63,475 nt of DNA, from positions 1 to 63,475 of the forward strand of contig JBMNVW010000005.1 of NCBI GenBank assembly GCA_050947035.1, given 5' to 3'. Numbering within the stretch: position 1 is the stretch's first letter; every line of letters begins with the position of its first letter. The notes under the pieces are model-generated. The model worked only from the letters and a program-made list of their open reading frames with translations, was not told the DNA's origin and made no database searches. This document shows positions 28,772 to 54,856 of this stretch, piece by piece. The translations under genes and the position numbers were made by a program. The DNA comes from Patescibacteria group bacterium. Its GTDB lineage: Bacteria; Patescibacteriota; Microgenomatia; 0-14-0-10-38-17.

Positions 28772-28856
28772 GCCGAAGTGGCGGAACTGGCAGACGCGTA
28801 CGGTTCAGGGCCGTATGGACTCTAAGTCCATGTGGGTTCAATTCCCACCTTCGGCA
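28772..28856 (+). tRNA. tRNA-Leu(CAG)
   Basis: Cloverleaf by hand: acceptor GCCGAAG/CTTCGGC, anticodon arm TACGG-TTCAGGG-CCGTA, long variable arm GGAC..GTCC, T-arm GTGGG-TTCAATT-CCCAC. CCA is not encoded. Confidence 0.9.
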
Positions 28857-28878
28857 CACTACATTATAATAAACTATT

Positions 28879-29055
28879 GAGCGGACGTGTCCCGCCTAAA
28901 ACGGCGGGCAGGTGGAACTTGAAGCGAAGTGAAATCCGCCTATAATCGCAGCATAAGGCGTGAGTGAATAACTCCCCAAAGCCGCATGCTAAGATATGGC
29001 GGAGGCAAAAAATAAAGCTTTAGTTGGTATTTAACAAATTATCGAGCGGACGTGT
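28879..29055 (+). other. 12-nt direct repeat (5' end of tRNA-Leu(GAG)) bracketing a 153-nt GC-rich structured spacer
   Basis: GAGCGGACGTGT occurs at 28879-28890 and 29044-29055. The spacer holds hairpins CCCGCC-TAAAAC-GGCGGG and GGTGGA..TCCGCC, plus GGCGGA able to compete for TCCGCC. Confidence 0.6.
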
Positions 29056-29132
29056 TGGAACTGGCAGACAAGCAAGCTTGAGGAGCTTGTGGGCGCAAGC
29101 CCGTGGAGGTTCAAATCCTCTCGTCCGCACCA
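29046..29132 (+). tRNA. tRNA-Leu(GAG), CCA encoded
   Basis: Acceptor GCGGACG/CGTCCGC, anticodon arm CAAGC-TTGAGGA-GCTTG, variable arm GGGC..GCCC, T-arm GGAGG-TTCAAAT-CCTCT, then ACCA. Confidence 0.9.
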
Positions 29133-29267
29133 GAAAAGAGAGGATGCAGAACCTCCAAAAAAAATTCTGATCTTGGAGATTTTAACCGACAGTCGTGCTG
29201 TTGGTATACCAGTAGACGAGGGGAAAAAGACGGTTCGTGTCGTCTTCAAATCCTCTCGTCCGCACCA
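29133..29267 (+). repeat. tRNA-linked element, copy A (ends in a 23-nt duplicate of the tRNA-Leu(GAG) 3' end)
   Basis: Hairpin GAGG-ATGCAGAA-CCTC mimics the Leu T-stem. Conserved blocks AAAATTCTGAT, GACAGTCGTGCTGTT and GACGGTTCGTGTCGTC follow. It ends with TTCAAATCCTCTCGTCCGCACCA (29245-29267), identical to 29110-29132. Confidence 0.75.
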
Positions 29268-29282
29268 TTTATTTTATTGTTT

Positions 29283-29356
29283 GGATCCGTAGCTCAGTTG
29301 GCTAGAGCGCCCGGTTTACATCCGGAAGGTCACAGGTTCAAGTCCTGTCGGATCCA
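29283..29356 (+). tRNA. tRNA-Val(TAC)
   Basis: Acceptor GGATCCG/CGGATCC, D-arm AGCTCAGTTGGCTAGAGC, anticodon loop TTTACAT, T-arm ACAGG-TTCAAGT-CCTGT. Confidence 0.9.
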
Positions 29357-29382
29357 CAAAACATGATAAAATAGGATTGTTT

Positions 29383-29455
29383 GCCAGGGTAGCCAAGGTG
29401 GTCACGGCGCGTGTCTGAAAAACATGAGATCCCGGCTCAACTCCGGGCCCTGGCA
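29383..29455 (+). tRNA. tRNA-Phe(GAA) with an atypical T-loop
   Basis: Acceptor GCCAGGG/CCCTGGC, anticodon arm CGTGT-CTGAAAA-ACATG, T-arm CCCGG-CTCAACT-CCGGG (C instead of T at loop position 1). Confidence 0.75.
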
Positions 29456-29464
29456 CTTATTTTT

Positions 29465-29536
29465 GCGGCGGTAGTTCAGTGGTAGAATACCTCCTTGCCA
29501 AGGAGAAGGTCGCCGGTTCAAGTCCGGTCCGCCGCT
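29465..29536 (+). tRNA. tRNA-Gly(GCC)
   Basis: Acceptor GCGGCGG/CCGCCGC, anticodon loop TTGCCAA, T-arm GCCGG-TTCAAGT-CCGGT. Confidence 0.9.
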
Positions 29537-29626
29537 CAAAAAATATCAGCGCCAAGTCAGACTTGGCTACTCCAAACAAAGAAATAGCGAACTTTAGTTC
29601 GCGCCAAAAAAATTTTCTTTAATTAT

Positions 29627-29698
29627 TGGGGAGTAGTGTAATGGTAACACGCCAGTCTTTGGAACTGGTTACTCTAGGTTCGAATCCTAGCTCCCCAA
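29627..29698 (+). tRNA. tRNA-Gln(TTG)
   Basis: Acceptor TGGGGAG/CTCCCCA (U1-A72 as in bacterial Gln), anticodon arm CCAGT-CTTTGGA-ACTGG, T-arm CTAGG-TTCGAAT-CCTAG. Confidence 0.9.
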
Positions 29699-29827
29699 CA
29701 TTAAGCTAGGTGAGAACCTAGTAAAAATTCTGATTAACAGAATAACAAAAGACAACCGTGCTGTTATTACACCAACCAACAAGGTAAGAAAGCGGTTCGT
29801 GTCGTCTTCGAATCCTAGCTCCCCAAC
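29699..29827 (+). repeat. tRNA-linked element, copy B (ends in a 21-nt duplicate of the tRNA-Gln 3' end)
   Basis: Hairpin CTAGG-TGAGAA-CCTAG mimics the Gln T-stem. Conserved blocks AAAATTCTGAT, GACAACCGTGCTGTT and AGCGGTTCGTGTCGTC follow. It ends with TTCGAATCCTAGCTCCCCAAC (29807-29827), a duplicate of the tRNA-Gln sequence from T-loop to 3' end. Confidence 0.75.
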
Positions 29828-42428: not shown

Positions 42429-43537
42429 TTAGAACAAAACTTGCTCTCGGGGTTATTTTTAGTCCCGCAAGCAGAGCAATAAACCGCTTCTTCTTTGGTT
42501 TTTGGTTCTTCTTTTAGCGGCTCCTTCTTCCCATCATCTGGTTGTTTCTCTTTATCCTTTCTAGTTAGCAAAAATATGGTTACCCCAATAATCACCAAAA
42601 CAGTAATCAAAATTAAAACCACTAAACCCCCAATCTTGCCCAAAAAGGGTTTGACCGGCAAAAACCCCTCATCATTATCATCAGTGTTGGCCGTTGCTGT
42701 CTTGCCCTCATCGGGTAGATCACTGCTAAGGCTTAACTGATATTGGCTAGCCCCAGATTGATCGGCGTTATAATCGCCAACCGCCACCGCAACATAAAAG
42801 GGGCCGTTTTTTTCCGCCTTAATCGAGGTTTCTGCCGCCACACCCGAGCCCTGAGGGTTATCACTGGCTACCTCGTCCCCATTATCATCATAAATTACCA
42901 AATCTAAATATAAGCCTCGAGGCGGCGTGGCTTTAACAGTTAAATTTTGCCCTCGACTAAGATTAACTTGATAAAAATCTTCCCCGTCTTGGGCATCATA
43001 ATTAAAGTCAAGAAAGCCAGTATGTTGGCCTAATTCAACCGGCAAAGCACTATTAAGCGTATTACCGGCATCAGTTTGGCTTTTGGCATCAAAGCGGTCA
43101 ACCACCTCAATACTGACTAAATCAAGGGTGGCCTTATTAATCGCCTGATTCTTAATTTGTAAATAATATTTTTGCTCTTCCTGGGAACCGTTAGGCCAAT
43201 AAAAAGAAAGATCATCATTAGGACCCAAATACTCTTTATAGGTTAGAACCTGATAATCTTGATCGTAAAAATATATGCCAAGATTGGTTTCACCGCTAAA
43301 TAAAACTTTAGCCCTAATTTCCTGGCCGGGTAAAACTTCTTCATCAATAAGATAAAAAACACTCTCTCCATCAGGCAGGGAATAATTACCATATTCGCCA
43401 AGAGAGAGGGGAGTGGCGGCTACTATGGCTTCACCACCAGCAGGAAGAGTGTTTTGGGCAAAAGATTGGCAGGGAAAAACGGAAAATAGCAAGCTAAATA
43501 GGAAAAAAAAGCAAAACAAGCGCCCTTTCTTTATCAT
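42407..43537 (-). CDS. Secreted protein with PPC-like beta-sandwich repeats, a TM helix and a cytoplasmic zinc ribbon
   Basis: Signal peptide, two pre-peptidase-C-terminal-like modules (..DGESVFYLIDEEVLPGQEI.., ..GEDFYQVNLSRGQNLTV..LDLVIYDDNG), a TM segment, a Lys/Glu tail and YCSACGTKNNPESKFCSKCG. Confidence 0.55.
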   Translation of the reverse strand: MIKKGRLFCFFFLFSLLFSVFPCQSFAQNTLPAGGEAIVAATPLSLGEYGNYSLPDGESVFYLIDEEVLPGQEIRAKVLFSGETNLGIYFYDQDYQVLTYKEYLGPNDDLSFYWPNGSQEEQKYYLQIKNQAINKATLDLVSIEVVDRFDAKSQTDAGNTLNSALPVELGQHTGFLDFNYDAQDGEDFYQVNLSRGQNLTVKATPPRGLYLDLVIYDDNGDEVASDNPQGSGVAAETSIKAEKNGPFYVAVAVGDYNADQSGASQYQLSLSSDLPDEGKTATANTDDNDEGFLPVKPFLGKIGGLVVLILITVLVIIGVTIFLLTRKDKEKQPDDGKKEPLKEEPKTKEEAVYCSACGTKNNPESKFCSKCGQELS

Positions 43538-43702
43538 GTTAATTCCAACTTAGACCATTAATTCTCTTCTGTCAAGAACCAACCTTGGCCTATATCTAAA
43601 TATCTAAAATAGCCTGGTAAAAATTTTTATTCGAGGCGCGGAGAAAAATTAACTAGCCAACTCCTCGCTTCAGTATGAAAATCCTCTCCTTTTGGCATAT
43701 CA

Positions 43703-43718
43703 ATAGATCCTGGATCTA
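43703..43718. repeat. Palindrome ATAGATCC-T-GGATCTA (copy of the 20561 core)
   Basis: 16 of 16 nt are identical to 20562-20577. Confidence 0.5.
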
Positions 43719-43770
43719 CCAAGTAATTAAAGCTAGTTTTCCTATAGTTTTGAATCTTTAAAAGGACCTT

Positions 43771-43967
43771 GTCAACCTTGGCTGTCTTAACTTTGGCCTG
43801 GGACAATATTTAGTTATCGAGGATAATAATTTAAAATTTTACGATTTAGATTATTAGTTCAAAAAAGAGAGGATTTCTCGCTTAAATACTTTACCGTATT
43901 TAAATAGTTGGGCATAAATTATTTTTACAAAATTTTTCACAATTTTAAAAAGGAGAGTCCTTAAAAA
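43771..43967 (+). repeat. Module copy A: last ~90 nt of a metallophosphoesterase gene plus ~110 nt of downstream sequence
   Basis: Aligns with 54544-54740. The gene fragment still reads in frame as VNLGCLNFGLGQYLVIEDNNLKFYDLDY*. The block TTAAATACTTTACCGTATTTAAATAGTTGGGCATAAATTA is identical in all three copies. Confidence 0.85.
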
Positions 43968-44153
43968 TATGGGCTAGTGGAAGATAAACGCTATTGTCTT
44001 GGCCCACAAAGACGAGATAAACACGTCACCCTTTTTAGGCTTTGGTAATGTATCCGACGTTTTTATTAAACTTATAATTTTATAATGACTTTGTTCCCCC
44101 CAAGAAAATTCAAGACACCCCTAATTTGCTAAAATAAACCCAATAACCAAACC

Positions 44154-44957
44154 ATGAGGCCAAAAAGAAAAAGTAAATTTTCTCTCTTTTGCTGGAATAT
44201 TGGCAACCCTTCAGAGGAAAGGGCCAAAAGACAGGCGATCTGGCTTGATAAACGCCCAGAGCATGTCTTCGTCTTAACGGAAACAAAAAATAGTAGTGGT
44301 TGTTTATTCATCGAAAAATACTTCCAAGAAAGAAATTATGATGTTTTCTTTCCTAAACCCAAAAACAATGAATATGGCACTATGATCATCAGCAAATATT
44401 CATTAAAAACCAGTAATTTCTCAAATAAAATTACTTATCTTCGCTCTCGGATAGCCTCTGTTAAACTAGAGCTCTCAACAGGATTACTAGAAATAATTGG
44501 GGTTTACGTTCCTTCTCGTAATTCAGAACCCAAAAAAGTGATTAAGAAAAAACGTTTTTTAGAAAACCTTATTGGGACTCTTAAAAAAAAGCCCACTTCT
44601 TCAAAAACCATCTTTTGCGGAGATTTAAATATTCTAGAACCCAATCATATTCCCCGCTACTCCTTTTTTCAAAAATGGGAATACGGCTTTTACCAAAATT
44701 TAACAGACAATAAACTCACAGACGCTTTTCGCCATCTAAGCCCCAGGGCTAAAGAGTATAGCTGGATTGGCCGCACCGGAGATGGGTATCGCTATGATCA
44801 CTGTTTTGCCTCAAAAGATCTCTTATCCTCATTGCACGAAAGTTACTACCTTTCCCAACCAAGGAAAATGAAATTAAGCGACCATTCCGCTTTAGTTACG
44901 ACATTTAATCTTAAACCCCTTAACCTAAAACCAAAAACAAACCCAATGCTATTCTAA
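44154..44957 (+). CDS. Endonuclease/exonuclease/phosphatase (EEP) family protein, exonuclease-III-like
   Basis: 267 aa with FCWNIG, VFVLTETK, GDLNI and LSDHSAL motifs. Confidence 0.8.
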   Translation: MRPKRKSKFSLFCWNIGNPSEERAKRQAIWLDKRPEHVFVLTETKNSSGCLFIEKYFQERNYDVFFPKPKNNEYGTMIISKYSLKTSNFSNKITYLRSRIASVKLELSTGLLEIIGVYVPSRNSEPKKVIKKKRFLENLIGTLKKKPTSSKTIFCGDLNILEPNHIPRYSFFQKWEYGFYQNLTDNKLTDAFRHLSPRAKEYSWIGRTGDGYRYDHCFASKDLLSSLHESYYLSQPRKMKLSDHSALVTTFNLKPLNLKPKTNPMLF

Positions 44958-44986
44958 ATCAACCCCAACCCGCATAGCGCTGCCCC

Positions 44987-45006
44987 TAAATACTGTAGTG
45001 TATTTA
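44987..45006. repeat. Fourth TAAATAC-N6-GTATTTA palindrome
   Basis: TAAATAC-TGTAGT-GTATTTA, 30 nt after the EEP stop. It has the same arms as the palindrome inside module copies A, B and C. Confidence 0.6.
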
Positions 45007-45287
45007 AATCATTGAAGTTCAAACTATTTTCCTTAGGTTCCCAAGAAACAAACATAATTCTATCCCAGGCGAAAATAAAAACAAAAAATGGATTAAGAGA
45101 AGAAAACTCTTAATGCTGGCGGTCAGCCCTTGAGGTGGTCTTTACAGTTGATCAGAGAATCCTTGAAAAAAATCCTTTGAAAATAACCCTTGAAAATGCC
45201 TCTCAGGTGGAAAAAAACCAAGAAGAAAAAAGTTTTCTTCATTAATTAGGATTATGGCGGATCTGTTGGATAAGGAGATTTACTTTC

Positions 45288-46072
45288 CTATCTACTATTG
45301 TCAAATCTTCCCTTCTCGACTACATGAGTAGGGCCATCTACATAAACCTTAGCAGCAATTTGCTCCAATTTACTTACACTCCAAGAGACTATCGGTAGAG
45401 ATTTTCCTCCGGTAGCCTCTAATATATAAACCCCTTGTTCATTGCGAGAAAGAGAAAATCAAAGTCGTTCATATTGACAACCACCATAGGTATAGGGAAA
45501 ACCATCCCCCTCCTTATAATCCCAAACCAAAGCGGTGTAGCACTTAATCATTTCCATACTATCTTCTCCTCTAGCAGATATATCTCGAAAACATTGCTGT
45601 AAAAAATCTAGTTTTTCTTGTTCTTGACGGCTACGGGAATATTTATCTTGTGGATTTACCGGCCTAGACATAAGCTCGAGATCAAGACCAGAAAAAGCGT
45701 AGACCTCTCCCGTTAGTGATGACCACGACCCAACTTGAACCTCTGAAATCACACCTAGCTTCGCTGGAGTAGGATCAATTCGCTTCTCCCGTTTTTTACG
45801 ACCAAAAAGGGTGGTAACAGTACTGCGTTCAGGAGTGCAATAATAAAGATCCATATCCTCTCTTAAATCCTCTAGAACACCAATTGCGCCAGATTCACTC
45901 AATTTTTGAACAAAAGGTAAGGCATAATTTCGAGCAATTTCTTCATGCCTTATATATACCGCATATATACCGCGTCTATACTTTCGGTTAATTTTCTCTC
46001 TTGTTCTATCTCCCAATTAAGAGCCTCTTGTTTTGCCCGCCTTCGTCTTTCAATCTCCTTTTTAATTCCCAT
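45288..46072 (-). pseudogene. Disrupted hypothetical gene: 11-bp tandem duplication (frameshift) plus in-frame TGA
   Basis: ATG at 46072 opens MGIKKEIERRRRAKQEALNWEIEQERKLTESIDAVY.., and ATATATACCGC is duplicated in tandem at 45952-45973. Removing one unit fuses this frame to track ORF 45459..46016. After the TGA at 45459-45461, 56 more codons stay open (FSLSRNEQGVYILEATGGKS ..) up to the TAG at 45288. Confidence 0.55.
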
Positions 46073-46261
46073 TTGAGCCTATAATATCACCTTCGCACTC
46101 TTGACGCAAGGCCCAATATAAACCCAGCTATCCAGCTATAGTAAGCCCTTTTCCTTTAAAAAATCAAAAGAGGGAATTGTTCTTAATAAATTTTATAAAA
46201 ATCCTCGAGACAAAAAGACAATCCCATCTCTCAAATGAGAACAGTCAAATTATTATGCCAT

Positions 46262-46306
46262 AAAAAAACCTCGCCCAGGCCAGCTAAATAGCTAGCCTGG
46301 ACGAGG
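46262..46306 (-). terminator. Rho-independent terminator after the S66 peptidase gene
   Basis: On the minus strand, CCTCGTCCAGGCTAGCT-ATT-TAGCTGGCCTGGGCGAGG is followed by TTTTTTT. Confidence 0.8.
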
Positions 46307-46409
46307 TGATGATATTTATATTTTACTGCATTAACACCGGTGTCGATAAAAAAACACAATCTTGATTATCATGAAGAACTAATAAAATTAAAAAAATTAT
46401 TAAAAAACT

Positions 46410-47396
46410 TTAGTGCTTAATTATTTTTATCTGACAGTTTTTCCCGCTGACAATCCTCGCCGTTCCACCAAGGGGTAAGGTAACCTTCGGCGTTGTGTGC
46501 CCAAAATCAACATTAGCAATAACTGGAATATTACCAATTACCCCCTTATTTCTCTTGATTATTTTTTCTAACAATTTTACACTGATATCACTCCTTATTT
46601 GGAATCTACCAAAAACCATCCCCACACAGCTTGCAAAGCCCTTATTTAAACACAAAGAAATTATATTTCTATTTAAATGATCTATTTCATACTCGTCATC
46701 GTCTTCAATAAATAAAACATATTTTTCTTCTCCTACCGGCCAGTATTCTGTCCCCCGAAGAAGCTGTAAGGTTGAGATATTACCACCTATTATTACCCCC
46801 TCAGCTTCTCCTTCTTGAATTGACAAGTATCCTTTATTTTTAAAAAAATGCCTGTCATTCTGGTTTTTCCCCCATTTTTCATCGCTCCATAAGCTAGATT
46901 CTCGCAAATCATAATTATTTTCCTGAAAGAGACATTTCTTAAAATATTCCATAGTATAACTAAAACCTCTTAACTCGCCAAAATCAAAGTAATGGGGACC
47001 ATAATATGTAACCAAGCCACTCTTAGTATAAATACCACTTAAAAGTGCGGTTATATCTGAATATCCACAAATAATTTTGGGATTACTTTTAATAACTTCA
47101 TAATCTAAATAGGGAAGTATCTCGATAGAGTTATAACCCCCGATAGCTGTAATAATCGCCTTAACGTTTTTGTCTCTGAAGGCTTCATGTAAATCTTTAA
47201 CTCTTTTTTCAATCGAAGACGAAGATAAATAGTCTATAGCCATCACGTTAGAAGCAAAAGTGAGCCTTAGACCTAATTCTTCAAATCTTCTATTGGCAAC
47301 CGCTTTTAATTCTTCAGTAAGCCAAGGCAAGGCCAAGCTTCTGGCTGGTGCGATAACTCTAACTTCATCGCCAAACTTAAGTTTAGGGGGGATCAT
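46410..47396 (-). CDS. S66 serine peptidase (LD-carboxypeptidase / MccF-like), copy 1
   Basis: 328 aa with VRVIAPA, the nucleophile context CGYSDITAL, the acidic FIEDDDE and His in DFGHTTP. Confidence 0.85.
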   Translation of the reverse strand: MIPPKLKFGDEVRVIAPARSLALPWLTEELKAVANRRFEELGLRLTFASNVMAIDYLSSSSIEKRVKDLHEAFRDKNVKAIITAIGGYNSIEILPYLDYEVIKSNPKIICGYSDITALLSGIYTKSGLVTYYGPHYFDFGELRGFSYTMEYFKKCLFQENNYDLRESSLWSDEKWGKNQNDRHFFKNKGYLSIQEGEAEGVIIGGNISTLQLLRGTEYWPVGEEKYVLFIEDDDEYEIDHLNRNIISLCLNKGFASCVGMVFGRFQIRSDISVKLLEKIIKRNKGVIGNIPVIANVDFGHTTPKVTLPLGGTARIVSGKNCQIKIIKH

Positions 47397-47435
47397 GTTT
47401 TCTCGTTATTTACTGCTTGATATAAATATACTTCA

Positions 47436-47903
47436 TTATACCTCGATGTTTTCTAGGCCCAAATATTCCATGCAAAATAAAAGCTCCTCTGCAGAATCGA
47501 TTTTATGAAAACCATTAAAAATAACCTCAAAACCGCTTTTCTCATCCCGAAAGGTTTTTCTTAAGCCATACCTAGAGCGCAAAGAGTTATCCAGAGATAA
47601 AAAATACCCCCAGGAAGAGCCCACATCATTAATCAATCTACGGATTGTGTTCCCCTTCACATGGCTAACAATAAGAACATAATAATCTTCTCCAAAATTG
47701 CTTTCTAAATAAGCCTTTAAAAACACCCCTAAAACTTCTTTCGAAAAATCCTTGCGGTATATAGCCTTAACAACTTGAGAAAAATTAGTTTTCTTATATT
47801 TCCCTAAAATTGAATATCCCCTTCTGCTTATATCCAAACAAATATTGTCTATCTCGCTCGCACATTCTGGTTTGACTATTAACAAAGAAAGATCTCTCTT
47901 CAT
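47436..47903 (-). CDS. Nucleoside-diphosphate-kinase-fold protein (divergent)
   Basis: LLIVKPE start as in NDK (IKPD), NTIRRL, and NGFHKIDSAEE aligning with N.VHGSDS.E (catalytic His retained). ATGA overlap with the upstream gene. Confidence 0.55.
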   Translation of the reverse strand: MKRDLSLLIVKPECASEIDNICLDISRRGYSILGKYKKTNFSQVVKAIYRKDFSKEVLGVFLKAYLESNFGEDYYVLIVSHVKGNTIRRLINDVGSSWGYFLSLDNSLRSRYGLRKTFRDEKSGFEVIFNGFHKIDSAEELLFCMEYLGLENIEV

Positions 47904-48622
47904 TGTATAATCTTTTCTGGCATAACTTCTTTTATAGAGTTCTTTTCCAAAAGCGTCATCATTAACCTATCGAAACTAATAAATACTCCTAAGCAAGGGG
48001 GAAGCCCTCTTTTAAACTCCTCTAAAAACCCAATATCCAGTCGGGCGTCAGGACGTTCTCTTTTTACCACCTCAAATTGTGATAACAACCTAGAAAGTAC
48101 CTGCTGGTAATCTTCCCCCTTCGCGCTGTGCGTCGAAAATGGCACTATATTTGCTGTCCCCGAATAGGGTGACATTATCCTACTATCTACCTCTGTTAGC
48201 CCATATTGCAGAAGGCTACTTCTGATTATTTCTTTTGCCCTTGCTCTACTTACTAACAATTCTTTAAGACTAAGATCTTCTCCTTCGTAACTCTCTGGCC
48301 TAGAAAACAAATGAAATCCTTCTACAAACAAACTCGTTTGACCACTGTTTGTAGCCCCAAGGTTTCCTACACACCGCACAAAGTCACCAGTTTTAATATC
48401 GAAAGGAGAGTTGTTATCCAAATTTTCAAAGACAATCTGTGTTTGAGTTAAGCCATTATAAACGTCACAAAACATTGTTCACTTATGTTTCCTTACCGCA
48501 ATTACTCTTCCTTCCACCTCTGAGCGGCCAACACCCTCTCCAACCCCTTGATCTTCTGAGCCACCTTGATACACTTCCCTCATTATATGAAGGATTTTAC
48601 CACCAGATCCAACTTTTTGCAT
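47900..48622 (-). pseudogene. LysRS-derived (class IIb aaRS) mini-protein lacking the catalytic core, interrupted by an in-frame TGA
   Basis: The OB fold is split by the TGA at 48479-48481 (..EVEGRVIAVRKHK*TMFCDVYNGLTQTQIVF..). The motif-1 region is LLQYGLTEVDSRIM, and VPFSTHS aligns with RPFITHH. It then jumps to motif 3 (GLPPCLGVFISFDRLMMTLL..SIKEV). About 230 aa of a normal catalytic domain are absent. Confidence 0.6.
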
Positions 48623-48664
48623 ATCTACTAAATGGTTATCAAAATAAACAATAAATATTTTTCA

Positions 48665-48975
48665 CGAAAAATATAACCAGAAAATTGAGACCAAGGCCAA
48701 AAAATATTTAAGAAGAAACCAAATCTTGGTTTGCGGCCATACTCACCTGGCCCAAAAAGACCCCAAGAAAGGTTTTATCAACCTTGGCTGTCTTAATTTT
48801 GGCCTAGGGCAATATTTAGTTGTCGAGGATAATAATTTAAAATTTTACGATTCGGATTATTAGTTTAGAAAAAAAGAGGGGATGCTTATTTAAATACTTT
48901 ACCGTATTTAAATAGTTGGGCATAAATTACTTTCACAAAATTTTTCACAATTTCAAAAAGGAGAATCCTTAAAAA
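48665..48975 (+). repeat. Module copy B: last ~190 nt of a metallophosphoesterase gene plus downstream sequence
   Basis: Aligns with 54428-54740. The fragment reads ..CGHTHLAQKDPKKGFINLGCLNFGLGQYLVVEDNNLKFYDSDY*. Most differences from copy C are synonymous or conservative. Confidence 0.85.
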
Positions 48976-49135
48976 TAAATACCTTATCTTTTACAACACT
49001 AAAAGAGTCCATCAAAGTCTAGACTATGAGACACCGATGGACTATATCATCAAAAAGGGAGGAATGTCGAATATGTATCGAGCCCGTACATAAGCTTTAA
49101 TTTATGACATATTTGTGATAGAATGTGTTTCACAT

Positions 49136-49387
49136 ATGGTAAATCCGGAAATTAAAATTAACCAAACACCTAATCACATAGATATTGTTATTAGGCAAGA
49201 AAGTTCTAGTAAAGCCGCTGTCGTTCATATTCCTTTTGGTGGAAAATCAGCCGAGACAAGTAGGATAGATCACTGGGCAAGCCCCGATGAACTATTTATG
49301 CGGCGAGAGTCCGCCATTGATATTAAAGCACCTATCGAAGAACGACCAAGAGATCATTGGGCCGGACCGGATGAATTGATGAGATAA
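49136..49387 (+). CDS. Small hypothetical protein with a duplicated C-terminal DHWA.PDEL motif
   Basis: 83 aa from the ATG at 49136 (the track starts at the GTG at 49115). Contains RIDHWASPDELFMRR and RDHWAGPDELMR-stop. No obvious SD. Confidence 0.4.
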   Translation: MVNPEIKINQTPNHIDIVIRQESSSKAAVVHIPFGGKSAETSRIDHWASPDELFMRRESAIDIKAPIEERPRDHWAGPDELMR

Positions 49388-49538
49388 TAGAATAATATAG
49401 TGAGATTTTAACTACTTTGCTCCGATTAGGCGCTGAGTAATTTGAGCCATTATGCCCCTAAGCCTAATCTCTTTTTGGTAAAATCAAAGGCTTAAATAAA
49501 GGAAAAAGTAATGCAAAATATGCAAAAAGGTATTTTGT

Positions 49539-50537
49539 ATGATTGATAAAATTTACCCCCCAAAATTATCGAAAGGCGATAAAATTGGTGTAATTGCTAC
49601 TTCAACACCAATCACGACTTTAAAGGAAGGACAAATTAAACAAGGCTATCACTATCTTGAAAGCAAAGGATTTACTGTTATTGAGCATCCTCAGTGTCGT
49701 AAAAAGAAAGATTATACAGCAGGAACAGTTAAAGAACGTGTTCGGGCTATTCACCAATTTGTTAAAGATAAAGAAATAAAATGCATTATGGCTTTTTGGG
49801 GTGGCTTAAACACAAATCAGATATTGGATTATTTGGATTATGATTTGATAAAAGCCAACCCGAAAATTTTTATTGGATATTCTGATACTTGCGCTTTGCT
49901 TCAGGCTCTTACTACAAAAACTGGTTTGGTTACCTATATGGGACCGGCAGTCATTACTTTTGCTAAACCAGACCCCTTCAATTATTCTTGGGAATATTTT
50001 AGCAAAATGTGTATCAAAGACTCAAAAGAAGTTGCAATCAAGGATTCTAAGGTTTTTGCCGACGATCTGTATTTTCTAAGAAAAGACAACGACCACCGGA
50101 TTATTCAAAAAAACCCGGGAATAAAAATATTTCGGGAAGGAAAAGCGCAGGGTTCAATAGTGGCATGTAATCTCTCTACTCTTTTAGCCCTTTGGGGGAC
50201 GGAGTATTTTCCTTTTCTAAAAGAAAAAATTCTTTTCATAGAAGAAGCGGAAGATTTAGATTACCGCTGGATACACCGTTTTATGACCCAATTAAAACAA
50301 ATAGGAGCTTTTAAATTAATAAAAGGTTTGGTTATCGGAAAATTTATGACTGCTTCAAATATTAGCGAAAGTCAACTTTTAGAAATTCTAAATGAAGTAA
50401 TTGGTAAAATCGAAATACCGGTAATCTATGATGCGAATTTTGGCCATACTGACCCCATCTTCACCGTTCCTAACGGTGGAAAATGTAAAATAAATACATT
50501 TTTCAATAAGATTTCATTTATCCAAGACAGAATTTGA
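49539..50537 (+). CDS. S66 serine peptidase (LD-carboxypeptidase / MccF-like), copy 2
   Basis: 332 aa with IGVIATS, IGYSDTCAL, FIEEAED and NFGHTDP. Overlaps the next gene. Confidence 0.85.
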   Translation: MIDKIYPPKLSKGDKIGVIATSTPITTLKEGQIKQGYHYLESKGFTVIEHPQCRKKKDYTAGTVKERVRAIHQFVKDKEIKCIMAFWGGLNTNQILDYLDYDLIKANPKIFIGYSDTCALLQALTTKTGLVTYMGPAVITFAKPDPFNYSWEYFSKMCIKDSKEVAIKDSKVFADDLYFLRKDNDHRIIQKNPGIKIFREGKAQGSIVACNLSTLLALWGTEYFPFLKEKILFIEEAEDLDYRWIHRFMTQLKQIGAFKLIKGLVIGKFMTASNISESQLLEILNEVIGKIEIPVIYDANFGHTDPIFTVPNGGKCKINTFFNKISFIQDRI

Positions 50538-50539
50538 AT

Positions 50540-51778
50540 ATGAGAATATCAAAGGAATCGGAAAAACATTATAATCTGTCCCATTCAGAAGAGATATTGG
50601 GGATAAGAAAAAAACTTGAGGAGACCTTTTTATCATTTTATAAAAAACATGGTTATAGTTGGGTTTCTCCCATTCCGCTTATTCCAGGGGAAATTGATCC
50701 ATCTGTAACGTTTACTGGGGCAACGGTGAATGGTTGGAAGCGATACTTAACAGGAGAAAATAAATTACCAAATAGGGGAATATATACAGCCCAACCATGT
50801 TTAAGAACCCAAAATGCGACTTCAATTTACGATTTTGAAACCACTCCTAAGTTTGGAAGTTATTTCTCAATGGCGGGGGTACTATCACCAGCCGGAAGAT
50901 TACCTGATATTTATCACGAAGCGCTTTCCCTTTTAACTGAAGAACTTGGAGTTGCCAAAAAAGATATTGTGGTTCATATTGCCTCTGACCATGAGGAAAT
51001 TAGCACTTGCGCGAGAGAGGGACCGTACGAGATAAAAATAGAGACCGATCAGATTGGTTATTATAAATGGAATTATGGAATAGAGGGGGTTTTAGGCGAA
51101 GGGTTAACAATAGCCTTATTAAACAAAAGGAGCCAAGAATTTGAAGAAATAGGGAATATTGTGTTAATTAAAAATAGTGGAAAAGCGATAGCAACTGAAT
51201 GGGGATTTGGACTGGAAACAACTACATCTAGACTTTTATCTTTACCACACCCTGTTTTTGCCTCTCCTGTAATTCGATTTATTGAAAAAGATGTTCTTTC
51301 AACTCCTTTGGGCGTTCGTTTGGGAGATTCTCTTGTTGCAATTTCTGCCCTTTTGGCCAATGGAACCGATCTTAATTCCTCAAATCAGAAAGTGGCGAGA
51401 GTTTTGGAAAAATATAAAAGAGGTATTGCCTACCTTGCTGCACTAGAAGAAATACCAGGAACTACGGTAGTAGAAATAATAACCAAGATTGTCAGCTCCC
51501 TCTCCCCCGAAGTTAGGGTATCGCCAGAAACAATAGAACAACTAGTTGGGTATTTTTCAAATGCCGGAAAGAGACAAAATGATTTCCTTAATTCTGTAAG
51601 GGGAATCCTCACTAACCCTGTCTATAGAACTAACCCGGAGCGTGCGGCAAAAAGTCTTCAAAGAACAGCTAAAAATTATGGATTTCATAATTTGAAAGTT
51701 ATTCGGGGTATAATTAGCTTCAACGCCAGGTTATTTACAAAAGAAGATCTTAATTTTTTAAAATGCCTACAAAACTAA
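50540..51778 (+). CDS. Stand-alone paralogue of the alanyl-tRNA synthetase catalytic domain
   Basis: Aligns by eye with the AlaRS N-terminus: IRKKLEETFLSFYKKHGY.. (IRQAFLDFF..KGH), DPSVTFTGA (DPTLLFTNAG), AQPCLRT (SQRCVRA), YFSMAGVLS (FFEMLGNFS), EIGNIVLI (EIWNIVFM), EWGFGLET (DTGMGLER). At 412 aa it has no editing or C-Ala domains. Confidence 0.65.
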   Translation: MRISKESEKHYNLSHSEEILGIRKKLEETFLSFYKKHGYSWVSPIPLIPGEIDPSVTFTGATVNGWKRYLTGENKLPNRGIYTAQPCLRTQNATSIYDFETTPKFGSYFSMAGVLSPAGRLPDIYHEALSLLTEELGVAKKDIVVHIASDHEEISTCAREGPYEIKIETDQIGYYKWNYGIEGVLGEGLTIALLNKRSQEFEEIGNIVLIKNSGKAIATEWGFGLETTTSRLLSLPHPVFASPVIRFIEKDVLSTPLGVRLGDSLVAISALLANGTDLNSSNQKVARVLEKYKRGIAYLAALEEIPGTTVVEIITKIVSSLSPEVRVSPETIEQLVGYFSNAGKRQNDFLNSVRGILTNPVYRTNPERAAKSLQRTAKNYGFHNLKVIRGIISFNARLFTKEDLNFLKCLQN

Positions 51779-52581
51779 CTCCCAAATTCATATACTCCCT
51801 TCCCTACACCGAGTTTGTGGGATTAGTTAACCAATGGAATGTTCCACCCGGGGCTTTTTCTACAGTTAATAAATGGGCTAAATTTGGTAATGTTAATCAG
51901 GATTCAAATGTTTTAGAATTGGGGTGTTCGACTGGATTTTCTTTAAGAGAGTTAACAGCTTTAACTTCTTGTAGGGGTTTAGGAATAGACATTTCTGAAG
52001 CTTCTGTGAAGACAGCCACGCTCAATAAAAATCTTTGTACTCCTGGAGCCAGAATAAAATATAAAAAGATAGACGCTTATAAGTTTCAACCAACAGAAAA
52101 ATTTTCGCATGTCGTTTTTGGAGCAGCTTTAAGATTTTTTCCGAATCCACCCAAGATACTAAAGTTAGCTACTGGCTGGTTGACAGATCCTGGGTATATA
52201 CTTTCATGCGAATTTTACACTATTCAACCAATCCCCAAAAATTTAGTAGAAAAAGCAAAAAAAATTTTTGACATAGAAATTACTCAAGTTGGCTACAAAG
52301 AAGTGATGAAAATCTACCATGATCTGGAATTAATATATGAGGAAAGAAATTCTATTTTTGAGGAGACGGCGGAAGAACTTAGCTTTTATTGTCAATCAAC
52401 TATTTCTAGAGCTTGTAAGCTTCTGAATATTACAGATAAAAAAATATATGATGCCATGTATAAGAGACTCTATGAAATAAAAAATATGTCCAACAGGCTT
52501 CGACCCTATCAAAACTATAATGTTTTAGTCCATCGATTTAGAAAAAAATTCTACCAAAAACGTTTTGTGGAGTTATTCTAA
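51763..52581 (+). CDS. Class I SAM-dependent methyltransferase
   Basis: Motif I VLELGCSTGFSL, a post-I acidic residue (GLGIDIS) and an FGAAL motif IV region. 16-nt overlap with the AlaRS-like gene. Confidence 0.7.
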   Translation: MPTKLTPKFIYSLPYTEFVGLVNQWNVPPGAFSTVNKWAKFGNVNQDSNVLELGCSTGFSLRELTALTSCRGLGIDISEASVKTATLNKNLCTPGARIKYKKIDAYKFQPTEKFSHVVFGAALRFFPNPPKILKLATGWLTDPGYILSCEFYTIQPIPKNLVEKAKKIFDIEITQVGYKEVMKIYHDLELIYEERNSIFEETAEELSFYCQSTISRACKLLNITDKKIYDAMYKRLYEIKNMSNRLRPYQNYNVLVHRFRKKFYQKRFVELF

Positions 52582-52591
52582 AAAAATAAAA

Positions 52592-53119
52592 ATGATATTA
52601 ACTGGCGAAGAAATAAAAAAACAGGTAAAACTTGGGAATATTCATATTAAACCTTTTTGCGAAGAATTAATAAATCCAAATAGTTACAATTACAGAATAG
52701 CTCCTGAATTATTAGAAATTGAGGAGGAAATAATTGATTCAAAAAATCCATACAAGACGAAAACGGTTTGGATGGACCAACAAAGCGGATTTATGCTCAA
52801 ACCTCACCGGCTATACCTGGCAAAGACCTATGAGGAAATTGGCAGTAGAGAATTTGTCACCATTTTAATAGGACGTTCGTCTGTGGGTAGACTAGGATTG
52901 TTTCTCCAAATTACCGCAGATTTGGGTCACGTAGGATGTCAACATTGTTGGACTTTGGAGCTAAAAGTGGTTCAGCCTCTTATTATTTATCCATTTATGA
53001 AAATTGGACAAGTCGGTTTCTGGATAAATTACGGTTCTAAAAATAAAAAATATTCTGGGGAGTACGGAAAATATTCAATTCCCTATCCAAGCAAACTCTA
53101 TAAGGAGCTTAATAAATGA
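52592..53119 (+). CDS. dcd: dCTP deaminase-fold protein (dUTPase superfamily), catalytic Glu present
   Basis: MILTGEEIKK.., NPNSYNYRI, and GRSSVGRLGLFLQITADLG..CWTLELKV, which aligns with GRSSLARLGL..IVLEF of Dcd. ATG at 52592 preferred. Confidence 0.75.
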   Translation: MILTGEEIKKQVKLGNIHIKPFCEELINPNSYNYRIAPELLEIEEEIIDSKNPYKTKTVWMDQQSGFMLKPHRLYLAKTYEEIGSREFVTILIGRSSVGRLGLFLQITADLGHVGCQHCWTLELKVVQPLIIYPFMKIGQVGFWINYGSKNKKYSGEYGKYSIPYPSKLYKELNK

Positions 53120-53631
53120 TACTCACGGGAAAAAAAATTAAGGAGGAAGTAAAAAAGGGTAAGATAGTTATCGACCCCTTTGATGAGAGTAAAATCAACC
53201 CAAACTCTTACGACTTCAGGTTGTTTAATAAGATAAAAATCTATAAAGAGCGAATATTGGATGTCAAAAAAGTGAATGAAGCTGAGGAGGTGGAAATACC
53301 CCCTTCGGGATTTGTATTAAAGCAAGACGTTTTATACCTCAGCTGTACGGTGGAAATTATGGGCAGTAATTTTTATGTGCCAATCATTCGAGGAAGATCT
53401 TCAACGGCAAGGCTTGGGATATTTATCCATATAACTGCCGACCTAATTGATATTGGCTCAATAAACAGGTGGACATTAATGATGCACGCTGTTCAACCAG
53501 TTAAAATTTATCCCTATATGCTAATAGGGCAGGTAACGTTTTGGGTTCCTAAAGGAAAAATAACTTTATATAAGGGTAAATACCAAGGAAGTAAAAAACC
53601 AATGTCATCATTAGCTTATAAGGATTTTTAA
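53116..53631 (+). CDS. dCTP deaminase-fold paralogue with the catalytic Glu replaced (TLMM)
   Basis: MILTGKKIKE.., NPNSYDFRL and GRSSTARLGIFIHITADLIDIGS..RWTLMMHA. ATGA overlap with the preceding paralogue. Confidence 0.7.
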   Translation: MILTGKKIKEEVKKGKIVIDPFDESKINPNSYDFRLFNKIKIYKERILDVKKVNEAEEVEIPPSGFVLKQDVLYLSCTVEIMGSNFYVPIIRGRSSTARLGIFIHITADLIDIGSINRWTLMMHAVQPVKIYPYMLIGQVTFWVPKGKITLYKGKYQGSKKPMSSLAYKDF

Positions 53632-53777
53632 AGAAGTTAAGTTTTTAGTCAATTAGGATTAATTAAATTTGGGGGTCTCTTTAATTACTATAATCAGCAG
53701 CATAGTAATCCAAACATTAGCCATATTCTATCTAACAACCAATAACATCTGCAACTCTCAAGGGGTTAAATTGCTAG

Positions 53778-53820
53778 GTCAAACCCCCACGAGGTCTTTG
53801 ACCCTTTAATCTTTTTCTTA
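53778..53820 (+). terminator. Candidate terminator of the 49.1-53.6 kb operon
   Basis: GGTCAAA-13 nt-TTTGACC followed by the T-rich CTTTAATCTTTTTCTT. Confidence 0.4.
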
Positions 53821-53985
53821 GCCAATTATTTAATCCCCATTCGATAACTCTTAGTTTTTCTTGAGACCGATTTCACTAAAATCCGTCCCTATGCTAGTAT
53901 GTAAAATACTGTTTTCTAAAAACCATTTAGGGCGAGCCCTTATAGGGGGGGCATTAAAATAAACCAAAGACTAAAAAGACTCACT

Positions 53986-54630
53986 ATGAAAACCCTAATT
54001 TTTTCCGATACTCATTTAACCAATAAGCCCGACCCCAAACGAATGGCTTTTTTGAAAAAGATTATCAACGAGGCTGACCGGGTAATTATCAACGGCGATT
54101 TTTGGGATGGAGTGTTTATTAGTTTTGATCAGTTTTTATCTTCCCCTTGGCAAGAATTATTTCCTTTATTAAAAAAGAAAAATACCATTTATGTTTATGG
54201 CAACCACGATAAAAAAGAGCGTTGCGACGAAAGAGTAAGCCTGTTTTCCAACCACCAGGCCGAAAGCTATTCTTTATCTCTAGGAAACAAAACCTTGCTA
54301 ATTACTCACGGCCACAACTTAAATTTATCCTTTACCAAAACAGTCAAAATCTTAAAAATCTGCCGGCCACTATTCCGCCTTGATCATTTTTTGGCCAATA
54401 TTTTGGGCCGAAAATATCTTTATTGGTCAAGAAAAAAATATAATCAGGAAGTTGAAAAAGAAGCCAAAAAACTTTCCCAAAGAAACCAAATTTTGGTTTG
54501 CGGCCATACTCACCTGGCCCAAAAAGACCCCAAGAAGGGTTTTATCAACCTTGGTTGTCTTAATTTCGGCTTAGGGCAATATTTGATTGTTGAAGATAAT
54601 AGCCTAAAATTTTATGATTTAGACTATTAG
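53986..54630 (+). CDS. Calcineurin-like metallophosphoesterase (LpxH/YfcE-like)
   Basis: IFSDTHL, NGDFWD, YGNHD, ITHGH and CGHTH motifs. This is the only full-length copy of the gene whose 3' end is repeated at 43.8 and 48.7 kb. Confidence 0.8.
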   Translation: MKTLIFSDTHLTNKPDPKRMAFLKKIINEADRVIINGDFWDGVFISFDQFLSSPWQELFPLLKKKNTIYVYGNHDKKERCDERVSLFSNHQAESYSLSLGNKTLLITHGHNLNLSFTKTVKILKICRPLFRLDHFLANILGRKYLYWSRKKYNQEVEKEAKKLSQRNQILVCGHTHLAQKDPKKGFINLGCLNFGLGQYLIVEDNSLKFYDLDY

Positions 54631-54740
54631 TTTAGAAAAAAAGAGGATTTCTCGCTTAAATACTTTACCGTATTTAAATAGTTGGGCATAAATTATTTTC
54701 ACAAAATTTTTCACAGCCTCAAAGGGGGAATCTTTAAAAA
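54428..54740 (+). repeat. Module copy C (reference copy: 3' part of the intact metallophosphoesterase gene plus ~110 nt downstream)
   Basis: Homology to copies A and B ends at the same point in all three, just after TTAAAAA (43967, 48975, 54740). Confidence 0.85.
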
Positions 54741-54856
54741 CACTTCAATTTTTCACTTCATTCCTCAAGCCCTAAAACCTAGCTACCTAACCATCTAGCG
54801 AAAGGCTTTTTGTTCCGTTACAATAAAACTAATCCTAAAATTTGAGTTCCTGCCTG

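Follow-up and report, generated by a model that had tools for sequence, protein, structure and literature searches.

A decaying copy of a conserved mobile gene module pairing a LysRS-like paralog with an S66 peptidase in a Patescibacteria genome

The DNA analyzed here, referred to as the window, is a stretch of 63,475 nt from a Patescibacteria group bacterium (contig JBMNVW010000005.1 of assembly GCA_050947035.1) and represents a fragment of a bacterial chromosome, with genes of glycolysis and the UvrABC genes. On its minus strand, at positions 46410-48622, an earlier note made from the sequence alone had described three translationally coupled genes, encoding a miniature protein derived from lysyl-tRNA synthetase (LysRS), a protein with the fold of nucleoside diphosphate kinases (NDKs), and an MccF-like peptidase of family S66. 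The three open reading frames (ORFs) are there, with 191, 155, and 328 codons, respectively (Table 1), and the family to which each had been assigned is borne out by the searches reported below. As for the coupling, the LysRS-like and NDK-like genes do share an ATGA stop/start overlap (47900-47903), but the NDK-like and S66 genes lie 39 nt apart. A promoter scan at the locus performed no better than on shuffled sequence. We found that the mini-LysRS is a recently broken pseudogene of a LysRS-like gene of about 400 residues and that the locus as a whole derives from a conserved mobile gene module, of which it is a truncated copy in decay.

The frame that starts at the ATG at 48622 reads MQKV...VEGRVIAVRKHK*TMFCDV, with a TGA that cuts the OB fold in two, so that the 240-aa protein previously read from this start is not a single ORF. 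The nearest relative, P0001, is an intact protein of 402 aa and 98% identity, and the contig that encodes it (L007) is 99.5 to 99.9% identical in DNA to window positions 48755-46345 apart from the lesions. Compared with L007, the stop results from a single C-to-T difference at 48481, which converts CGA (Arg48) to TGA. The second lesion is a 486-nt deletion, in frame: L007 has GGGGGAAGATTTTTAT and AGCGAAGATTACCAG 486 nt apart, and the window keeps one fused copy. The ends of the deletion are thus two GAAGATT direct repeats, fused in the window, and the event is of the typical slippage type, mediated by microhomology. It takes out residues ∼172 to 333 of P0001, a gap of 162 aa and not the ∼230 aa estimated before, and with them the family-invariant positions T177, L182, E195, G197, R201, E212, E217, P221, and P301, which belong to motif 2 and the active-site sheet. 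In Pfam, the 191-aa ORF matches the C-terminal end of tRNA-synt_2 only, which confirms its derivation from LysRS, plus, weakly, the OB anticodon-binding domain.

Table 1. Features of the cassette and its surroundings (positions in the window)
Feature	Position	Strand	Basis or remark
S66 serine peptidase, MccF-like, intact, 328 aa	46410..47396	minus	both S66 domains in Pfam; PDB search
NDK-fold protein, intact, 155 aa	47436..47903	minus	AlphaFold model, Foldseek
Residual LysRS-derived ORF, 191 aa, start equivalent to Met50 of the intact form	47900..48475	minus	ORF call
Pseudogene of short LysRS-like paralog (intact form P0001, 402 aa)	47900..48622	minus	in-frame translation and L007 DNA
Premature TGA, codon 48	48479..48481	minus	CGA (Arg) in L007, Arg in L013
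Junction of the 486-nt in-frame deletion	48109..48115	minus	one fused GAAGATT copy, compared with L007
3'-terminal remnant of APH-like kinase gene, last 23 codons and stop	46349..46420	plus	KKHNLDYHEELIKLKKLLKNFSA*, the C terminus of the L007 APH gene
Terminator-like hairpin, 18-bp stem and T-run, downstream of the S66 gene just past the breakpoint	46268..46307	minus	
Direct repeat copy A: last ∼90 nt of a metallophosphoesterase gene and ∼110 nt downstream; left edge of the ∼5-kb unit	43769..43969	plus	
Direct repeat copy B: final ∼210 nt of the metallophosphoesterase gene, followed by downstream sequence; abuts the start of the LysRS-like pseudogene	48667..48977	plus	
Direct repeat copy C: 3' end of the intact metallophosphoesterase gene (53986-54630) and downstream sequence	54434..54743	plus	
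Second S66 peptidase, overlapping a 414-aa AlaRS-like protein	49539..51778	plus	Pfam

Sister strains carry other lesions. The 122.5-kb metagenome contig L013, 99.2 to 99.5% identical to the window over 43008-54714, keeps both Arg48 and the 486 nt, and its LysRS-like gene is frameshifted by a 1-nt deletion at gene position 754; the gene has therefore been broken independently in L013 and in the window. Because the window copy has both a TGA and a 486-nt deletion relative to an intact homolog with 98% identity, and because the lesions differ in sister strains, we consider it a pseudogene. The possibility that the TGA is instead read as an amino acid (genetic code 4 or 25), the gene being broken by the deletion only or not at all, deserves a thought in a low-GC genome of uncultured type, where an alternative code is conceivable. 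However, TGA is an ordinary stop here, ending 10 of the 46 long ORFs of the window, among them the LysRS-like gene at its own conserved natural stop, and this excludes recoding. Moreover, the homologous codon is CGA (Arg), neither Gly nor Trp, the long ORFs fit Pfam models from end to end under code 11, and the window shows six ordinary tRNAs with no suppressor tRNA(UCA) and no array of in-frame TGAs at conserved Gly or Trp positions. We rejected this explanation, whose probability we regard as negligible.

The earlier note had proposed a conserved short architecture, that is, a functional LysRS derivative deliberately reduced to the OB fold and motifs 1 and 3 and working together with the NDK-like and S66 proteins. 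The 191-aa ORF has indeed persisted with an ATG and still overlaps the start of the NDK-like gene, and the 486-nt deletion is in frame. Yet no homolog has the 191- or 240-aa form: our protein search returned nine relatives, all of 366 to 402 aa except the window's own ORF, and relatives overall span 316 to 402 aa. The TGA splits the OB fold, the deletion leaves none of the family-invariant catalytic residues from T177 through P301, and the lesions are absent from a contig with 99.5 to 99.9% identity and differ from those of sister strains. The minimized-LysRS reading is thus already largely refuted and in our judgment very improbable. The window copy, which offers no uninterrupted ORF of 316 to 402 aa with the invariant T177-P301 positions, does not count as a member of the short paralog family described below.

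Decay extends to the rest of the cassette. Homology to L007 stops at 46345, and the downstream half of the intact module, consisting of an APH-like kinase gene and a ThiY/NMT1-type ABC importer, has been replaced in the window, where 23 kinase codons are left. The cassette is truncated and decaying, with only the NDK-like and S66 genes intact. A further ORF nearby (45459-46016, minus strand) is also broken in the window, by an 11-nt insertion (45952-45962) and a CGA-to-TGA change at 45461; it is a 257-aa ORF in L013 and matched neither Pfam nor PADLOC. In a third near-identical strain, L012, repeat copy A is joined straight to copy B and the whole ∼5-kb unit is absent.

The repeats in question, copies A, B, and C, each consist of the 3' end of a metallophosphoesterase gene with ∼110 nt beyond it; they are 81 to 91% identical, and each holds the palindrome TTAAATACTTTACCGTATTTAAATA. 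Those at the edges of the unit with the cassette are repeated over ∼200 nt. They bound two tandem units of ∼5.0 and ∼5.8 kb, each with one cassette of an S66 gene and a gene resembling an aminoacyl-tRNA synthetase (aaRS), in an arrangement that looks like a recombination or integration hotspot; the intact metallophosphoesterase gene is on the right-hand side, unlike in the usual att layout. At ∼48990-49100 (plus strand), a short remnant resembles the C-terminal end of an rve-type integrase/transposase (YNTKRVHQSLDYETP), with sub-threshold matches to Pfam rve_2/rve_3 (E ∼1e-3), and IS1595 or resolvase genes adjoin the module in other contigs. Based on the repeat-bounded units, the rve remnant, and these neighbors, we conclude that the module is mobile and dispensable. 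It also occupies different sites in related genomes, given that the intact cassette of L002 lies directly beside a tRNA array (L002 7936-8775), near UvrC and a transglutaminase-like gene. The equivalent array of the window is a cluster of six tRNAs (Leu, Leu, Val, Phe, Gly, and Gln) at 28772-29699.

What has decayed is not a housekeeping gene. The earlier note had also considered that the mini-protein might be a decayed fragment of a full-length lysS; the decay is real, but the sequence comparisons assign the parent to a dedicated short paralog, since P0001 scores 134.7 bits against TIGR00499 (cutoff 427.6) and 142.8 bits against NF001756 (cutoff 468), far below the LysS cutoffs, and reaches only 90.3 and 85.7 bits against the EpmA/PoxA models (cutoffs 264 to 287). 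No NCBIfam model fits the LysRS-like, NDK-like, or APH proteins. An exhaustive profile search delineated the family as ∼16 clusters at 50% identity, with proteins of 316 to 390 aa and E values from 1e-45 to 1e-213; below them, scores drop to E ∼1e-30, and longer proteins of canonical LysRS size (∼500 aa) start to appear. A scan of GTDB genomes returned a single locus, in a metagenome-assembled genome labeled Gammaproteobacteria. The AlphaFold model of P0001 (predicted local distance difference test [pLDDT] score of 81) has strands at residues 34 to 107 that form an OB-like N-terminal domain, followed by a class II catalytic domain, and its top 50 Foldseek matches in the PDB are all LysRS, aligned end to end with template modeling (TM) scores of 0.72 to 0.78. 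The ratio of nonsynonymous to synonymous substitution rates between lineages is 0.09 for the LysRS-like gene, 0.10 to 0.16 for the NDK-like gene, and 0.11 to 0.14 for the S66 gene, and the intact LysRS-like family is under purifying selection. The gene is not of the essential, single-copy type that every strain keeps intact: the window and L013 carry broken copies, and L012 has none.

The paralog shares with class II LysRS (LysS/LysU), its best relatives in sequence (E ∼3e-21), an OB anticodon-binding domain and a class II catalytic domain over the full length, as well as the motif 2 Arg with its Glu-Phe/Tyr pair and the motif 3 Asp-Arg. It differs from LysS/LysU in being shorter (316 to 402 aa versus ∼490 to 505 aa, the alignment beginning ∼50 residues into the solved chains), dispensable, and island-borne, and in its altered motifs: FRNE is changed to FRN[L/M/H] and HNPEFT to an RRETEFT-like sequence, and opposite the first Mg-binding Glu the alignment has Gly322, nearly invariant in the family. 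Next in similarity comes EpmA/PoxA (GenX), likewise a class II LysRS paralog, with a nontranslational role (PDB match at 1e-12, 90 bits in NCBIfam). The solved EpmA chains, of 326 to 345 aa, align with the catalytic domain only, whereas the paralog family keeps its OB-like N-terminal domain, and the constant partner of the paralog is an S66 peptidase rather than EpmB/EpmC.

The partnership itself holds up well. The earlier note had argued that the adjacency of aaRS-like and S66 genes exceeds chance, and in 11 of the 11 lineages with a readable neighborhood the LysRS-like gene is adjacent to, or at most two genes from, an S66 gene, which strongly supports a functional link between the two. S66 identities drop in step with LysRS-like divergence, a sign of co-inheritance. 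The earlier observation was thus partly right, with strong support for the aaRS-S66 link and none for the mini architecture. Three layouts recur. In the clade closest to the window, the order is LysRS-like, NDK-like, and S66, followed by an APH-like kinase gene on the opposite strand and a binding-protein-dependent ABC importer; the binding protein is closest to the ThiY/THI5 pyrimidine binders, and the APH-like protein matches only a hygromycin kinase, and weakly. The second layout places a class I LysRS gene between the LysRS-like and S66 genes, and an ECF-type importer comes after S66 wherever the contig reaches that far; at the P0027 locus, the LysRS-like, S66, and ECF genes are present but a class I LysRS gene is missing. 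In the third, a radical SAM gene is followed by the LysRS-like and S66 genes, a second radical-SAM-like protein, and a HAD phosphatase, and one case adds a methyltransferase. A radical SAM gene lies directly upstream of the LysRS-like gene in L001, L017, and L020, and the L020 enzyme has AprD4 as its closest solved match, with HydE also found and no lysine aminomutase among its PDB matches. In three diverged lineages (L014 1197-2780, L015 1135-2715, and the contig of P0015; PF01921 at 5e-104 in L014), the full-length class I LysRS gene of the second layout directly follows the short class II LysRS-like gene; it is uncommon for one operon to hold LysRS genes of both classes. Our search of the literature on LysRS-like paralogs, on BA_5613/Lmo1638/YocD, and on combinations of aaRS, MccF, and NDK found the module described nowhere. 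The pairing of a LysRS paralog with S66 is genuine and, it appears, undescribed.

The S66 protein carries both Pfam domains of the family (116.5 and 83.4 bits for cutoffs of 25 and 23.7; E of 1e-33 and 2.5e-23). Its nearest solved structures are MccF-like, as had been proposed: BA_5613/Lmo1638 (∼3e-94), Bacillus anthracis MccF (1e-50), and Escherichia coli MccF (3e-40), with LdcA far behind (1e-13 to 1e-17), placing it by sequence much closer to the MccF-type enzymes than to LdcA. The predicted triad Ser113/Glu231/His300 lies in the motifs GYS113D, FIE231D, and FGH300T, which match BA_5613 and are conserved in the 9 S66 proteins aligned. A W-x-x-x-x-W loop is present, as a candidate for the adenine-stacking Trp loop of MccF (Trp186). 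MccF hydrolyzes the aminoacyl-nucleotide amide bond of synthetase inhibitors that mimic aminoacyl-adenylates (PMC8323819). The family and the catalytic Ser/Glu/His motifs are thus common to the S66 protein and to MccF, BA_5613, and Lmo1638, whereas the genes of the MccF system (MccA/MccB/MccC/MccE) are lacking near the module.

The NDK-fold call also holds, since the top 50 PDB matches of the AlphaFold model (pLDDT of 86.4) are all NDKs in Foldseek, with TM scores of 0.62 to 0.73. At the sequence level the relationship is distant: neither Pfam (PF00334) nor the NCBIfam NDK models match, and a profile search against the PDB gave weak NDK-domain matches only (E of 0.02 to 0.15). In an alignment with canonical NDK sequences, to which identity is 11 to 20%, the invariant K11, N130, H133, D136, and S137 align with NDK K12, N115, H118, D121, and S122, and the central stretch containing the equivalents of R88, T94, and R105 is not reliably alignable. 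The protein thus resembles Ndk/NME in its ferredoxin-like fold and in the Lys, Asn, and His-x-x-Asp-Ser signature, and differs in having no family-model match and in being encoded in only one clade of the module.

What might the intact module do? A precedent is the biosynthesis of ascamycin, in which AcmF, a truncated AlaRS-like protein with degraded ATP-site residues, moves alanine from Ala-tRNA to a nucleoside sulfamate, the hydrolase AcmE reverses the AcmF reaction, and an extra AlaRS, AcmD, is encoded in the cluster; SbzA of the SB-203208 pathway is an IleRS-like analog of AcmF (PMC12945691). The sets of LysRS-like, S66, and class I LysRS genes, and likewise the unit of AlaRS-like, S66, methyltransferase, and dCTP-deaminase-like genes next to the cassette, would follow the same logic. 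The differences are that AcmF derives from AlaRS, that AcmE is an alpha/beta hydrolase and not an S66 peptidase, and that ascamycin and SB-203208 come from actinomycete sulfamate pathways, whereas we recognized no sulfamate genes near the module. In the LysRS-like enzyme, both class II arginines persist, as do the adenine-stacking aromatic residue and a tRNA-type OB fold, and the FRNE Glu and one Mg-binding Glu are gone. This architecture and the partial loss of ATP-site residues, in the LysRS-like and AlaRS-like proteins, appear compatible with an AcmF-type transferase that depends on aminoacyl-tRNA.

Because of the MccF-type S66 peptidase, the ascamycin precedent, the conserved motif deviations, and the cluster partners, we tentatively propose, at less than even odds, that the substrate or product of the intact module is a conjugate of an aminoacyl group with a nucleoside or nucleotide, i.e., a lysyl-adenylate mimic. 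In our working model, the LysRS-like enzyme would join lysine or a lysine analog to an amino group of a nucleoside or pyrimidine scaffold, with either its own adenylate or, in the manner of AcmF, Lys-tRNA as the donor. Hydrolysis of the resulting aminoacyl-amide bond, for self-immunity or for release, would be the task of the MccF-type S66 peptidase; the NDK-like protein, the kinase, and the HAD, radical SAM, and methyltransferase enzymes would modify the nucleotide moiety; uptake of a pyrimidine-like precursor would fall to the importer; and where a cluster has a class I LysRS, that enzyme would supply Lys-tRNA or resist the product. In the window, the pathway would be dead, with the S66 and NDK-like activities surviving at most. 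Taken whole, a decaying copy of a conserved mobile LysRS-like/S66 module, combined with the aminoacyl-nucleoside role proposed for the intact module, is our best explanation of the locus, to which we assign a probability of roughly 60%.

The importers lend themselves to another view, in which the module is an island of resistance or detoxification: an imported toxic lysyl-adenylate mimic or lysine-analog conjugate would be cleaved by the S66 peptidase, and the LysRS-like protein and the class I LysRS would act as drug-insensitive or decoy synthetases. Stand-alone MccF homologs do confer resistance to microcin C (PMC8323819), class I LysRS is adjacent in three lineages, and mobility and dispensability fit such an island. 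On the other hand, a back-up LysRS would be expected to have the canonical FRNE/HNPEFT and Mg-binding residues that this family lacks, the radical SAM, methyltransferase, HAD, kinase, and NDK-like partners have the appearance of tailoring enzymes, and an importer for a toxin is counterintuitive. We consider this function unlikely.

Recycling of cell wall peptides appears improbable. It would cast the S66 protein as an LD-carboxypeptidase acting on L-Lys-D-Ala stems, the APH-like protein as an AmgK-like kinase (AmgK is an anomeric sugar kinase), and the LysRS-like protein as the enzyme that reactivates or ligates lysine. The APH fold is present, lysine is a shared link, and S66 is the LdcA family in Pfam, with a weak NCBIfam match of our protein to muramoyltetrapeptide carboxypeptidase. 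However, the S66 protein is much nearer to the MccF type (1e-40 to 1e-94) than to LdcA, the APH-like protein resembles only a hygromycin kinase and weakly so, the binding protein resembles pyrimidine binders and not peptide or sugar binders, and the clusters contain no Mur/Mpl genes. Still more doubtful is an EpmA/PoxA-like lysylation, in which a lysine isomer made by a radical SAM enzyme would be attached to EF-P or another protein. Among relatives of the paralog EpmA ranks second, and a radical SAM gene lies directly upstream in the three contigs named above, but EpmA lacks the OB domain that the family keeps, 90 bits is far from the cutoff of 264, the affinities of the L020 enzyme lie with AprD4/HydE and not with lysine aminomutases, and the obligatory S66 partner would be left without explanation.

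Several points weigh against the explanation that we prefer, a decaying module that once acted on an aminoacyl-nucleoside conjugate. Its functional part draws on gene context and analogy, and on roles of active-site positions (the Mg-binding Glu and the adenine-stacking aromatic residue) carried over from LysU structures through a HMMER alignment. Neither a precursor peptide nor an MccB/ThiF-like enzyme accompanies the module, no ThiF-family (MccB-like) gene being listed in any table of its neighborhoods. The transporters are of importer types (binding-protein-dependent ABC and ECF) and not exporters, which suits salvage or detoxification no less well than it suits the production of an antibiotic, and ordinary tRNA charging would likewise agree with the OB fold having been kept. 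The S66 subfamily of BA_5613/Lmo1638 is without a characterized substrate, our literature search having found no functional study of either protein, and the NDK-like partner, limited to one clade, is accessory. Finally, since the S66 and NDK-like genes are still intact in the window, the remnant may not be wholly functionless.

A second aaRS-like/S66 pair had been announced in the neighboring unit and is indeed present. Its S66 peptidase is 35 to 37% identical to the first, and its AlaRS-like protein is without the GGKHND loop; an exact-sequence lookup of the AlaRS-like gene returned nothing, and one metagenome scan gave only two copies, both 100% identical. Downstream of it, at 51763-53631 (plus strand), are a methyltransferase gene and two tandem, overlapping genes for dCTP-deaminase-like paralogs of 184 and 171 aa, the second of which reaches the dCTP_deam cutoff and the first of which falls just short. 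A PADLOC scan for antiphage defense matched no cassette protein except, weakly, this methyltransferase, which resembles mad2. Upstream of the second S66 gene, a 90-aa ORF (49115-49387, plus strand) with two occurrences of DHWA[SG]PDEL[FM] is conserved in L012 and L013 and matches no family. Elsewhere in the window, a 1,399-aa ORF (13395-17594, plus strand) with no Pfam match at E ≤1e-5 lies beside a 610-aa ORF resembling a surface protein (SdrD_B/SpaA/DUF11 domains).

We see the parent module as a probable variant, so far undescribed, of known aaRS-like/hydrolase systems. More speculatively, and with the odds clearly against it for now, the LysRS-paralog/S66 pairs and their AlaRS-like/S66 counterpart might be undescribed, widespread mobile modules in which a truncated class II synthetase aminoacylates a nucleoside or pyrimidine scaffold, making or recycling synthetase inhibitors that mimic aminoacyl-adenylates. 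If true, they would be a new source of natural products targeting aaRS, and of transferases dependent on aminoacyl-tRNA or adenylate, in uncultured bacteria. If lysyl-adenylate mimics are made or disarmed, the logic of ascamycin, SB-203208, and microcin C would reach uncultured bacteria as well as a synthetase family new to it, and the solved, uncharacterized BA_5613/Lmo1638 peptidases would gain a concrete substrate hypothesis. The series of intact, frameshifted, nonsense-plus-deletion, and absent alleles gives a clean snapshot of module loss among strains. In the genome of the window, the striking mini-synthetase has turned out to be a fresh pseudogene on a genomic island in decay, and the gain lies in the invariant pairing, seen in at least 11 lineages, of a diverged and selected LysRS paralog with a peptidase of the MccF-like kind.

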